The translations under genes and the position numbers were made by a program. The notes under the pieces are model-generated. The model was not told the DNA's origin, made no database searches, and saw only the letters and a list, made by a program, of their open reading frames with translations. This document shows, piece by piece, positions 17,391 through 19,820 of a stretch of 64,000 nucleotides of DNA. The DNA comes from Bacteroidota bacterium. GTDB lineage: Bacteria; Bacteroidota; Bacteroidia; AKYH767-A; OLB10. Numbering within the stretch: position 1 is the first letter of the stretch; each line of letters begins with the position of its first letter. The stretch spans positions 7,148 to 71,147 of the forward strand of contig JANNXV010000011.1 in the NCBI GenBank assembly GCA_031409815.1, in the 5' to 3' direction.

Positions 17391-17426
17391 GTCACTCAAT
17401 TAAATTATTTTTGCCGCCAATATCCT

Positions 17427-17498
17427 GGTCTCGTAGTTCAATGGATAGAATAGAAGTTTCCTAAACTTTTGATGCAGGTTCGATTCCTGTCGAGACTA
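17427..17498 (+). tRNA. tRNA-Arg (anticodon CCT)
   Basis: Manual cloverleaf fold. The acceptor stem is GGTCTCG/CGAGACT with a G1-U72 wobble. The D-arm is GTTC...GAAT. The anticodon stem is GAAGT/ACTTT with loop TTCCTAA. The T-arm is GCAGG-TTCGATT-CCTGT, and the discriminator is A. Confidence 0.8.
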
Positions 17499-17512
17499 CA
17501 AAAAATGGGAGT

Positions 17513-17755
17513 ATGTATTATGCATACGTTTTGAAAAGTAAAAATCATGACTATTATTACAAAGGTCATTGTCATGATTTGCAAAAACGACTAACCCAAC
17601 ATAATTCCGGGATGACTGCATCCATACGACCTTATATCCCGTTTGAAATAGTTTATACTGAAAGTTTTGAATCGGAAGCAGATGCAATTCAAAGAGAAAA
17701 ATATTTTAAGTCTGCTGCCGGAAGAAGATATTTAAAAAGGAAAATTGTTCCGTAG
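17513..17755 (+). CDS. small GIY-YIG nuclease family protein (UPF0213/YhbQ-like)
   Basis: 80 aa. YYAYVLKS and YYYKGHCHDLQKRLTQHNSG are the GIY and YIG motifs. A conserved Glu lies in the FEIVYTESFES...REKYFK block. The gene sits between a tRNA-Arg and its degenerate duplicate. Confidence 0.85.
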   Translation: MYYAYVLKSKNHDYYYKGHCHDLQKRLTQHNSGMTASIRPYIPFEIVYTESFESEADAIQREKYFKSAAGRRYLKRKIVP

Positions 17756-17873
17756 CTCAATTCTCGTTCGAACGAACTATTCGGTACAGACGGGGAATAG
17801 AAGTTTCCTAAACTTTTGATGCAGGTTCCCTGCCCGAATGAATTCGTTCAGGCGGGGATTCCTGTCGGGACTA
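17747..17873 (+). other. degenerate duplicate of tRNA-Arg(CCT) interrupted by two mutually complementary insertions (tRNA-like remnant / att-like repeat)
   Basis: 17796-17828 is identical to tRNA positions 23-55. 17858-17873 (ATTCCTGTCGGGACTA) matches the tRNA 3' end with one change. The 5' GTTCCGTAGCTCAAT resembles the tRNA 5' end. The insertions at 17762-17795 and 17829-17857 are roughly reverse-complementary (GAACGAA..ATTCGG..CAG versus CTG..CCGAAT..TTCGTTC). Confidence 0.6.
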
Positions 17874-17880
17874 CAAAAAA

Positions 17881-17909
17881 GGGCTGACAAAAATTTTGTT
17901 GGCCCTTTT
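17881..17909 (+). terminator. rho-independent terminator
   Basis: GGGCTGACAAAA-ATTTTGTTGGCCC forms a hairpin followed by TTTTC. Confidence 0.7.
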
Positions 17910-19290: not shown

Positions 19291-19539
19291 ATGCCTGAGA
19301 TAAGTCGCTTTTATGGTTTAATAATCTACATGTTTTTTAATGATCATGTTCCCCCTCATTTTAAAGTGAAATATGCGGAGTATGAAGCCAATGTTTTAAT
19401 TGAGAACGGCAATGTGCTGAATGGAGATTTACCTACAGGTAAATTAAAACTTGTTCAAGCCTGGGCAGAAATACATAAAACAGAATTAATGGAAATGTGG
19501 AATACAAAAGATTTTCATAAAATAAATCCTCTTCAATAA
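19291..19539 (+). CDS. DUF4160 family small protein
   Basis: 82 aa. MPEISRFYGLIIYMFFNDHVPPHFKV matches the DUF4160 N-terminal block as remembered (MP.IS.FYGI.I.MY..DH.PPHFH). Not verified by search. Confidence 0.6.
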   Translation: MPEISRFYGLIIYMFFNDHVPPHFKVKYAEYEANVLIENGNVLNGDLPTGKLKLVQAWAEIHKTELMEMWNTKDFHKINPLQ

Positions 19540-19820
19540 TGGAACGGGTAGTTGAAATAACTGAGATTGGTAAATATTACTGTGTATGCAGGTTTAATAA
19601 CGGCACCATTAAAAAAATAAATATTGAACCATTAATTAAATCTCACGCTAACAAATTAACCCGCAACCTTTTTGACTTCTCCATTTTCAGTGAAGTTAAA
19701 ATTGGAGATGTTGGACAATTGTATTGGGCTAATACTTCAACTATGAAAGATGAAAAAGGAAATATTATTCCTTGTGAATATGATATATCTCCTGAATTTA
19801 TTTTCAATAACGCTGTTTAG
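19539..19820 (+). CDS. DUF2442 family small protein
   Basis: 93 aa. Its start overlaps the stop of the upstream gene by 1 nt (TAATG). The size and the YWANTS...PEFIF block are consistent with DUF2442, the usual partner of DUF4160. Confidence 0.5.
   Translation: MERVVEITEIGKYYCVCRFNNGTIKKINIEPLIKSHANKLTRNLFDFSIFSEVKIGDVGQLYWANTSTMKDEKGNIIPCEYDISPEFIFNNAV

Follow-up and report, generated by a model that had tools for sequence, protein, structure and literature searches.

Organization of the locus

The stretch of DNA analysed here (64,000 nt; hereafter the window) derives from a Bacteroidota bacterium (assembly GCA_031409815.1, contig JANNXV010000011.1, positions 7,148–71,147 of the forward strand). 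It contains an intact tRNA-Arg gene followed by a short open reading frame (ORF) that encodes an 80-amino-acid (aa) GIY-YIG nuclease and terminates inside a second copy of the tRNA-Arg gene, referred to as tRNA*, in which the D-loop and the T-loop are each interrupted by a short insertion (ins1 and ins2, respectively). An initial annotation of this DNA had described the interrupted tRNA copy; the decisive context, a nuclease ORF terminating inside it, was absent from that description. The region is best explained as the 3′ module of a selfish, tRNA-Arg-specific cassette composed of tRNA-Arg, a minimal GIY-YIG nuclease and tRNA*, and the copy in the window is an aged representative of a widespread tRNA-Arg/GIY-YIG/hairpin cassette that is apparently undescribed. 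The features of the unit are the following.

17406–17426, + strand: leader with putative −7 promoter box TATTTTTG (17406–17413), read directly from the sequence, just 5′ of the tRNA
17427–17499, + strand: intact tRNA-Arg (CCT), the functional copy (ARAGORN; Rfam RF00005, 65.6 bits)
17513–17755, + strand: ORF of the 80-aa GIY-YIG nuclease (ORF list; Pfam PF01541, 3e-13)
17746–17873, + strand: tRNA*, second tRNA-Arg(CCT), interrupted in D-loop and T-loop (alignment, spliced alignment)
17762–17789, + strand: D-loop insertion, part 1, a decayed type-2 hairpin in (−) orientation (alignment to the reverse complement of ins2)
17790–17795, + strand: D-loop insertion, part 2, ACGGGG (alignment to the D-loop double insert of locus L008; type-1 consensus)
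17829–17856, + strand: T-loop insertion, an intact 28-nt type-2 hairpin, CCTGCCCGAATGAATTCGTTCAGGCGGG, in (+) orientation (palindrome, identical copies elsewhere)
17877–17909, + strand: terminator-like hairpin, AAAAGGGCTGACAAAA / TTTTGTTGGCCCTTTT (inverted repeat I2, 88%)

The hairpin types are:

type 1: CCCGCCCGGCTGACGCCAGTCGGACGGG
type 2: CCTGCCCGAATGAnTCGTTCAGGCGGG
type 3: CCCGCCCGTACCGAACGGTACGTTCGGGCGGG

The acceptor stem of the intact tRNA-Arg (GGTCTCG/CGAGACT) forms 7 of 7 pairs. The ORF starts 13 nt past the end of this tRNA, and its C-terminal codons and TAG stop (17753–17755) are at the same time the 5′ acceptor strand and U8-A9-G10 of tRNA*. No promoter was found in a sigma-70 scan of the tRNA-to-ORF interval, and the leader at 17406–17426 is presumed to drive the entire tRNA-ORF-tRNA* unit; its TATTTTTG resembles TAnnTTTG, which we take to be the −7 box of the Bacteroidota type.

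Both insertions derive from a single palindromic element

tRNA* was detected by aligning 17420–17510, which holds the intact tRNA-Arg, against 17740–17885. The alignment confirms the second tRNA-Arg copy with two insertions that the initial annotation had reported, with the start corrected to 17746 (position 1 = T17746), and outside the insertions tRNA* matches the intact copy. The D-loop insertion covers 17762–17795, as annotated. The T-loop insertion had been sited correctly but given as 29 nt (17829–17857); it is exactly 28 nt (17829–17856) and is flanked by C56 (17828) and G57 (17857). In the D-loop, bases G19–A21 are absent and G18 is changed to T (17762).

ins2 is itself a palindrome (17827–17845 vs 17840–17858, 84%) that folds alone at −16.3 kcal/mol. 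The 28-mer is base-identical in the T-loops of loci L172, L186 and L201, unrelated contigs among them, and matches the elements of L008, L039 and L064 except in the loop. This loop is GAATTC (17840–17845), conserved in the identical copies at L172, L186 and L201. The D-loop insert agrees with the reverse complement of ins2 at ∼19 of 28 positions, the (+) orientation fitting much worse; L008 has the same (−) element at the same D-loop site, and L201 carries an undecayed nested counterpart, CCCGCCTGAACGAATTCATTCGGGCAGG. Judged from these alignments, ins1 and ins2 are opposite-orientation copies of one palindromic element, of which the D-loop copy has decayed. The terminal ACGGGG (17790–17795) is probably the 3′ stub of a type-1 hairpin (...TCGGACGGG), mostly deleted along with G19–A21. 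The 8-bp palindrome GTTCGAAC, which had been pointed out together with GAATTC, is present at 17766–17773 in the D-loop insert and seems to have arisen incidentally as the arm CCTGAACG decayed from GC to AT. The window cassette is old, its D-loop element having decayed toward the AT-rich composition of the host and one hairpin having been mostly deleted.

The near reverse-complementarity of the two insertions stands, with imperfect pairing: the arms 17759–17776 and 17843–17860 are complementary at 72% in a repeat search (overall about 72–75%), the ins1:ins2 RNA duplex has an energy of −27.6 kcal/mol, and folding of the 127-nt tRNA* region, as had been suggested, gives −50 kcal/mol (z = −4.3), which none of 200 shuffles equals. 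This complementarity arises because both insertions are copies of one palindromic element. Thus, the ∼17-bp helix around the anticodon arm that had been proposed is thermodynamically possible but is best read as a side effect of inverted palindromes, and the inserts do not constitute a dedicated helix. Among the loci compared, the D(−)/T(+) combination of the type-2 element was seen only in the window, its close relative L201 and L008, most related loci having a D-loop hairpin alone or combinations unable to pair with each other, and the long helix is therefore not a conserved feature.

Within the 64-kb window no other copy of either insert was found by a 15-mer search allowing 3 mismatches or by a family regex, whose single match is 17829–17856. 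The copy search called for in the initial annotation does, on the other hand, return copies in many genomes, and of the three readings offered there, the others being a tRNA-derived SINE-like structure and a structured RNA, that of a palindromic element like a miniature inverted-repeat transposable element (MITE) that captured a tRNA fragment was right in essence as to a mobile palindrome and reversed as to the direction of capture: a complete duplicate of the tRNA gene received two separate insertions of a tiny element, one in each of two loops. A MITE in the strict sense was considered and rejected, the element being one end-to-end palindrome without target-site duplication. Filled and empty tRNA sites differ by the element alone (27–32 nt).

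The same architecture in other Bacteroidota

The description of the tRNA-Arg/GIY-YIG/hairpin cassette is secure and extends to 80 genomic loci of nuclease homologues from Chitinophagales, Cytophagales (Algoriphagus, Cecembia, Indibacter) and Sphingobacteriales. The tRNA-Arg/GIY-YIG/tRNA* layout recurs in about 70 of these loci, in all three orders. ARAGORN places a tRNA-Arg upstream of the ORF start in 69/80 loci, mostly ending 9–21 nt before the ORF, and the anticodons of these 69 are all CCT or CCG. Of 71 ORFs of intact length, 59 end in TAG, and in 55 the D-arm TNCAAYG comes immediately after the stop codon. The downstream copies are interrupted by GC-rich imperfect palindromes of 27–32 nt, found in both orientations in the tRNA-Arg copies of ∼75 related loci. 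The insert lengths in tRNA* are multiples of about 28 nt, and tandem arrays, nested insertions and deletions from the D-loop element to the T-loop element all occur. A spliced alignment of 55 well-aligned tRNA* copies gives the following distribution of insertion sites.

D-loop site AATG^GATAG (G18^G19): 49/55 copies
T-loop site GGTTC^GATTCC (C56^G57): 15–17/55 copies
variable-loop/T-stem junction: 6/55 copies
position 38/39: 5/55 copies
other sites: a few of the 55 copies

The hairpins keep close to the ORF. Across the 80 loci, 124 of 136 motif matches fall within about 500 nt of it, and those farther away occur only at second cassettes. In most of the 80 loci, hairpins of 27–32 nt are found no more than about 300 nt 3′ of the ORF, and some 30 loci have them on the 5′ side as well; in the window they are downstream of the ORF only. 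Seven loci (L004, L008, L009, L012, L054, L055, L067) have a second GIY-YIG ORF a few bases past tRNA*, which makes them tandem arrays of the form tRNA-ORF-tRNA*-ORF-tRNA*, and some genomes hold several paralogues. A second architecture, consisting of tRNA 1–18, a hairpin, tRNA 19–32, the ORF and an intact tRNA, is present in L073, L024, L088, L136 and L138; this order of parts would result if a hairpin-plus-ORF unit had inserted at G18^G19.

Several loci show further rearrangements. Directly 5′ of the intact tRNA, L064 (1160–1410) has three tandem 79-nt units, each made of a 19-nt leader, tRNA 1–17, a type-1 hairpin and tRNA 18–31, and L072, L075 and L080 have similar but longer units; such units may have been left behind where the DNA was repeatedly broken and repaired at the hairpin. 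In L047 (1170–2000; Algoriphagus aquimarinus ACAM 450), both flanking tRNA-Arg copies carry D-loop hairpins and the 3.2-kb locus has no intact tRNA-Arg; either another tRNA-Arg copy exists elsewhere in the genome, or the tRNA is dispensable. In L014 and L020, from metagenome-assembled genomes of Algoriphagus, the upstream and downstream tRNA-Arg(CCT) copies are clearly distinct and their order is swapped (A-ORF-B* vs B-ORF-A*), which demonstrates that tRNA modules have been shuffled around the ORF.

State of the second tRNA copy

ARAGORN and Rfam (at the gathering score and with E up to 10) call only 17427–17499 in this region and not tRNA*. Across 18 related loci, Rfam at the gathering score returned tRNAs alone, and a known RNA family for the tRNA* structure was rejected on this result. 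In the window, a T1·T72 mismatch adds to the G18-to-T change, the G19–A21 deletion and the T-loop split at C56^G57. All 7 acceptor pairs are formed in 47/49 upstream tRNAs, whereas this is the case in only 13/46 tRNA* copies. The mismatch between the two tRNA copies is distributed unevenly.

positions 1–7: 19–31%
positions 8–16: 3.9%
positions 17–73: at most 3.5%
3′ acceptor strand: 0.7%

The divergence has its boundary at the hairpin site, as would result from gene conversion that runs through the 55 nt of 3′ homology and is stopped by the hairpin; functional constraint on the 3′ part of tRNA* is a possible alternative. tRNA* itself is probably not a working tRNA.

Hairpin family and its dispersal

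A metagenome scan with the exact type-1 28-mer, CCCGCCCGGCTGACGCCAGTCGGACGGG, gave at least 132 copies in at least 120 contigs. Among the 132 matches listed, 55 lie in tRNA-Arg D-loops and 77 at non-tRNA sites. Also among the matches listed, 49 of the 55 D-loop copies have a GIY-YIG ORF in the locus; 26 of the ORFs end just 5′ of the hairpin and 17 begin just 3′ of it. The non-tRNA sites comprise at least 49 distinct contexts with full 40-nt flanks and exhibit a flank preference TCAWG^GNT (among the matches listed, G at −1 in 40/49, G at +1 in 35/49 and T at +3 in 39/49). The D-loop (ATG^GAT) and T-loop (TTC^GAT) sites have the ^GAT part of this preference.

Pairwise identity among the D-loop hairpins has a median of 93%; for the ORFs beside them, identity is 68% overall and 49% at third codon positions. 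In 34 distinct type-1 variants, the C5·A24 mismatch is nearly invariant and the G9·T20 wobble is invariant, which suggests that these are recognition features giving the element a direction. A conserved RNA helix was considered for the type-1 hairpin and rejected, the conservation lying at the sequence level. Such a pattern agrees better with a repeat that is recognised by sequence and actively copied than with conservation of an RNA helix.

In L103, L105, L139, L158, L178 and L195, exact type-1 hairpins are located within short tandem heptamer arrays (CACAAAG, GGTGAAT, GTTTTGA), which may either attract insertion or be produced by it. Among the non-tRNA hairpin sites (L081–L200), 19 of 59 distinct sites are inside stop-free frames of at least 100 codons. 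As a 28-nt insertion should shift the frame, the frames are possibly spurious; alternatively, genes may be interrupted by the hairpins.

Empty sites and mobility of the cassette

Orthologous loci were located through the upstream neighbour, an endonuclease-I type IX secretion substrate, and share thrC, endonuclease I, the same leader and tRNA-Arg-CCT as markers. The site is occupied in the window and in L201, whose neighbour is 93% identical, and empty in L202 and L204 (neighbour 77% identical), where one intact tRNA-Arg(CCT) is present with no nuclease and no hairpins, the leader ttaaattatttttgccgccaatatcct again standing 5′ of the lone tRNA-Arg. L201 has an extra upstream unit made of tRNA 1–17, a type-1 hairpin with a nested undecayed type-2 hairpin, and tRNA 18–30.

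At the empty sites, the acceptor stem of the resident tRNA is GGTCCCG/CGGGACT; its C5-G68 pair and 3′ strand CGGGACT recur in tRNA* of the window, while the upstream copy there has T5-A68. The two copies are therefore mosaic, as would be expected from recombinational copying of the cassette with the tRNA sequence as homology arms. The nearest GIY-YIG relative is at the other anticodon type in 14/66 cases, and nuclease identity is about equal within (70.1%) and between (68.8%) anticodon types; on these comparisons, the cassette has switched between tRNA-Arg(CCT) and tRNA-Arg(CCG) genes. The tandem arrays and the second architecture likewise speak for a mobile cassette.

In L202 (4757–7647), this tRNA-Arg(CCT) is followed immediately 3′ by a separate island that carries a tyrosine integrase and an HTH_17 gene, so that mobile elements of at least two unrelated kinds use the gene as a landing site.

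The GIY-YIG nuclease

The window protein is a single-domain nuclease, with Pfam GIY-YIG spanning residues 1–71 of its 80 aa. Its AlphaFold model is one compact GIY-YIG domain with a predicted local distance difference test score (pLDDT) of 94.5, and both Pfam and AlphaFold find the catalytic domain only, with no C-terminal DNA-binding domain. More than 1000 homologues were retrieved at up to 81% identity, nearly all of 80 aa, and the catalytic-motif columns are invariant among them. The best structures by Foldseek are UPF0213 BH0048 (1.2e-4) and the Slx1 nuclease domain (TM about 0.70); a PDB profile search gives the UPF0213 proteins EF2693 (4e-7) and BH0048 (6e-5), and Bacillus subtilis yazA is 35% identical. 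An exact look-up returned no identical record for the window's own protein, and an NCBIfam search gave no match. A tblastn search gave no match in phages and, in plasmids, only B. subtilis yazA. A phage or plasmid origin of the cassette was rejected: it is chromosomal and bacterial, with no phage or plasmid copies in the collections searched.

Relation to known systems

The closest parallel is provided by Ssn, a family of single-domain GIY-YIG site-specific single-stranded DNA (ssDNA) nucleases of ∼94 aa that bind ∼30-nt semi-palindromic NTS/SRM hairpin repeats flanking their own genes and cut adjacent ssDNA (Chenal et al. 2025, Nat Commun, PMC11893778). Its authors raise an IS-like or REP/RAYT-like origin or architecture, and their paper mentions neither tRNA nor Bacteroidota (PMC11893778). 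Both systems have a minimal GIY-YIG protein of about 80–95 aa without a DNA-binding domain, a gene flanked, sometimes on both sides, by semi-palindromic hairpin repeats of 20–50 nt, and a repeat that is imperfect and oriented and has further copies elsewhere, in the present case at non-tRNA sites in metagenome contigs. By analogy, the present system resembles Ssn in its minimal nuclease, flanking hairpins and additional hairpin copies in metagenomes, and activity on ssDNA would be predicted. It differs in that the repeat has another sequence, that the hairpins are embedded in the loops of a duplicated tRNA-Arg gene, that the ORF is fused to the tRNA copy with U8-A9-G10 as its stop, and that the unit is presumably driven by an upstream tRNA gene. 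In a literature search of incomplete coverage, which is no proof of novelty, only the Ssn paper was relevant and the tRNA-linked arrangement was undescribed.

REP/BIME-RAYT systems and IS200/IS605 elements likewise involve very short extragenic palindromes that spread within genomes and form tandem and nested clusters, insertion beside a short motif without target duplication, and a single-copy enzyme gene with its own flanking hairpins and presumed ssDNA-hairpin chemistry. Here, however, the enzyme is a GIY-YIG nuclease and not an HUH/Y1 transposase, the elements are shorter (27–32 nt), and insertions mostly target a defined position within a tRNA gene. Free-standing GIY-YIG homing endonucleases, such as I-TevI and the T4 Seg proteins (e.g. 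SegB in the T4 tRNA gene cluster), share the catalytic fold, the presence/absence polymorphism at a conserved gene (window and L201 occupied, L202 and L204 empty) and mosaic tRNA copies of the kind that recombinational copying would leave. Unlike I-TevI and Seg, the 80-aa protein has no C-terminal DNA-binding domain; the target is moreover not destroyed, an intact tRNA-Arg with unchanged D- and T-loops lying beside the ORF in 69/80 loci, and the cassette is chromosomal and bacterial.

In both sequence and fold, the window protein is closest to UPF0213/YhbQ/YazA proteins and the Slx1 nuclease domain. We know of no association of these proteins with hairpin repeats or tRNA, and Slx1 is a structure-specific nuclease of double-stranded DNA junctions that requires its partner Slx4. 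The mobile GC-rich palindromic clusters of fungal mitochondria (∼30–50 nt) also reside in an AT-rich genome and nest in each other and in structured genes, but they belong to another domain of life and have no defined enzyme partner and no tRNA-position specificity.

If the link between nuclease and hairpins is true, the cassette would represent a second, sequence-distinct branch of the partnership between minimal GIY-YIG nucleases and hairpin repeats, with a clear genetic read-out in its tRNA-Arg D-/T-loop target, its empty and filled sites and its autonomous and solo forms. Mobility of the 28-nt hairpin, site specificity of the 80-aa protein and recognition of a folded single-stranded tRNA gene would all be testable, and new hairpin/nuclease pairs are candidate site-specific ssDNA-cutting tools. 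For annotation, hundreds of Bacteroidota genomes have hairpin-interrupted tRNA-Arg copies that tRNA finders miss, and these copies adjoin ORFs with the stop codon inside the tRNA.

Proposed mechanism and alternative explanations

We propose a scheme of five steps, the first three of which are documented by the loci compared and the last two inferred. Among relatives, the cassette is either present or absent at one and the same chromosomal tRNA-Arg gene, and it has switched anticodon type (step 1). One tRNA copy is kept intact under selection and the other is redundant, its 5′ acceptor strand having turned into the C-terminal codons and stop of the nuclease (step 2). In the redundant copy hairpins pile up at G18^G19, C56^G57, the variable-loop/T-stem junction and 38/39, and they also insert into one another (step 3). 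On the Ssn analogy, the 80-aa GIY-YIG protein would bind hairpins extruded in ssDNA and nick nearby, and repair or copying would spread both solo hairpins (non-autonomous) and the hairpin-plus-ORF unit (autonomous) into the same G18^G19 target (step 4). Finally, the tRNA promoter would drive the ORF and the tRNA homology would serve as arms for recombinational copying (step 5).

Three alternative readings concern tRNA* itself. Random decay of a duplicated tRNA with chance complementarity of unrelated insertions, put forward in the initial annotation as the outcome if no copies existed elsewhere, would agree with the degenerate state of ins1 and with the lack of a second copy of either insert in the window; it fails since copies exist in many genomes, elements that agree with ins2 in every base occupying the same tRNA position in unrelated contigs and the architecture recurring in three orders, and with this refutation its probability is negligible. 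It is very improbable that tRNA* is still a working tRNA gene whose hairpins are excised or tolerated as intervening sequences, in the manner of archaeal non-canonical tRNA introns or of the intervening sequences of rRNA. Apart from the hairpins, many tRNA* copies (L010, L052, L075, L080) do not differ from the functional tRNA, the D-loop site is in a naturally length-variable part of the loop, and in L047 both flanking copies carry hairpins. However, acceptor positions 1–3 are mismatched in most copies, only 13/46 retaining all 7 pairs, an intact copy is nearly always adjacent, and the window D-loop has lost G19–A21. The inserts also split the G18/G19 and C56/G57 elbow contacts, which are required for tRNA folding, and we know of no bacterial enzyme that excises and re-joins such hairpins. 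A functional structured RNA, in which the D-loop/T-loop helix is part of the fold and the 3′ module acts in processing, stability or translation of the nuclease mRNA or as a guide or inhibitor of the nuclease, would account for a fold far beyond that of shuffles, for inserts in or next to cloverleaf loops and for the ≥96% identity that tRNA*, 3′ of the hairpin, shares with the functional tRNA; as the ORF stop lies inside the structure, RNase P cleavage would moreover yield a stop-less mRNA. Against this, the hairpins vary in number (0–4 or more), type, orientation and site, entire anticodon arms are deleted in L003, L023 and L028, the acceptor stem is degraded in most tRNA* copies, hairpin covariation is not significant, no Rfam family matches, and the same hairpin occurs at dozens of unrelated sites. 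The identity of tRNA* positions 18–73 could also be explained by hairpin-limited gene conversion over 55 nt. The structured, helix-forming RNA that had been suggested initially is thus quite improbable.

We consider it fairly likely, by analogy with Ssn, that the nuclease acts on the hairpins and that these spread by ssDNA cutting and recombinational copying. Several observations weigh against this account. Among the non-tRNA copies listed, 76/77 have no GIY-YIG ORF in the locus (median ∼3.8 kb). Covariation in the type-1 hairpin is not significant (0.151 vs 0.135 in shuffles, 43/500 of which reach it). The nearest solved relatives in the PDB, which has no Ssn structure, are UPF0213 and Slx1, and the published SRM pattern HGTCWYN(0-2)YYVSBRHN(0-5)WNVSBRGN(0-2)RNCYNB matches neither the 64-kb window nor 238 kb of the 80 loci (0 matches in each), with the Neisseria NTS found as a positive control. 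In L202 and L204, synteny downstream of the empty site is lost, which leaves the right boundary of the mobile unit undefined. The intact upstream tRNA keeps the preferred target yet is hairpin-free, so that purifying selection must be invoked. The association of nuclease and hairpin could be indirect, and this is the main rival, which we regard as rather unlikely: the hairpins would be an independent repeat moved by an unlinked enzyme (e.g. an HUH/RAYT-like transposase) with a TCAWG^GNT preference that the tRNA-Arg D-loop TCAATG^GAT happens to fit, they would survive only in redundant tRNA-Arg copies, which arise only where the GIY-YIG cassette has doubled this tRNA gene, and the nuclease would be a free-standing homing-type endonuclease unrelated to them. 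The 77 non-tRNA sites among the 132 exact copies listed, nearly all of them without a GIY-YIG ORF in the locus, the clear flank preference satisfied by the D-loop, the hairpin-free intact tRNA copies and the unmatched Ssn repeat motif all favour an indirect link. It is opposed by the hairpins upstream of the ORF in truncated units and at one end of the hairpin-plus-ORF unit of the second architecture, by the presence of a hairpin within about 300 nt in nearly every cassette, by the Ssn precedent, in which minimal GIY-YIG proteins are typically paired with flanking hairpins, and by Pfam, which finds no transposase among the ORFs adjoining the window cassette (neighbouring ORFs only).

A further reading, a tRNA-replacement element of the addiction type, is unlikely. 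Such a selfish element would supply an intact tRNA-Arg of its own together with a minimal ssDNA nuclease guided by hairpins, and the nuclease-associated 28-nt hairpins would enter the resident tRNA-Arg at the elbow nucleotides G18^G19 and C56^G57 and disable it, solo hairpins being non-autonomous derivatives. These two sites are adjacent in the folded tRNA, which would suggest a cloverleaf-folded single-stranded tRNA gene as the target; with the resident gene disabled, the cell would need the cassette tRNA co-transcribed with the nuclease, and the element could therefore not be lost.

Flanking features of the window

The hairpin at 17877–17909 was not called in a strict terminator scan because only 4 T follow its stem; tRNA* of L201 likewise has a comparable hairpin 3′ of it. 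Further downstream in the window (19291–19820), an ORF with a DUF4160 domain (Pfam 1e-21) is followed by an overlapping 93-aa ORF without a Pfam match, and the two resemble a small gene pair of the toxin-antitoxin type.

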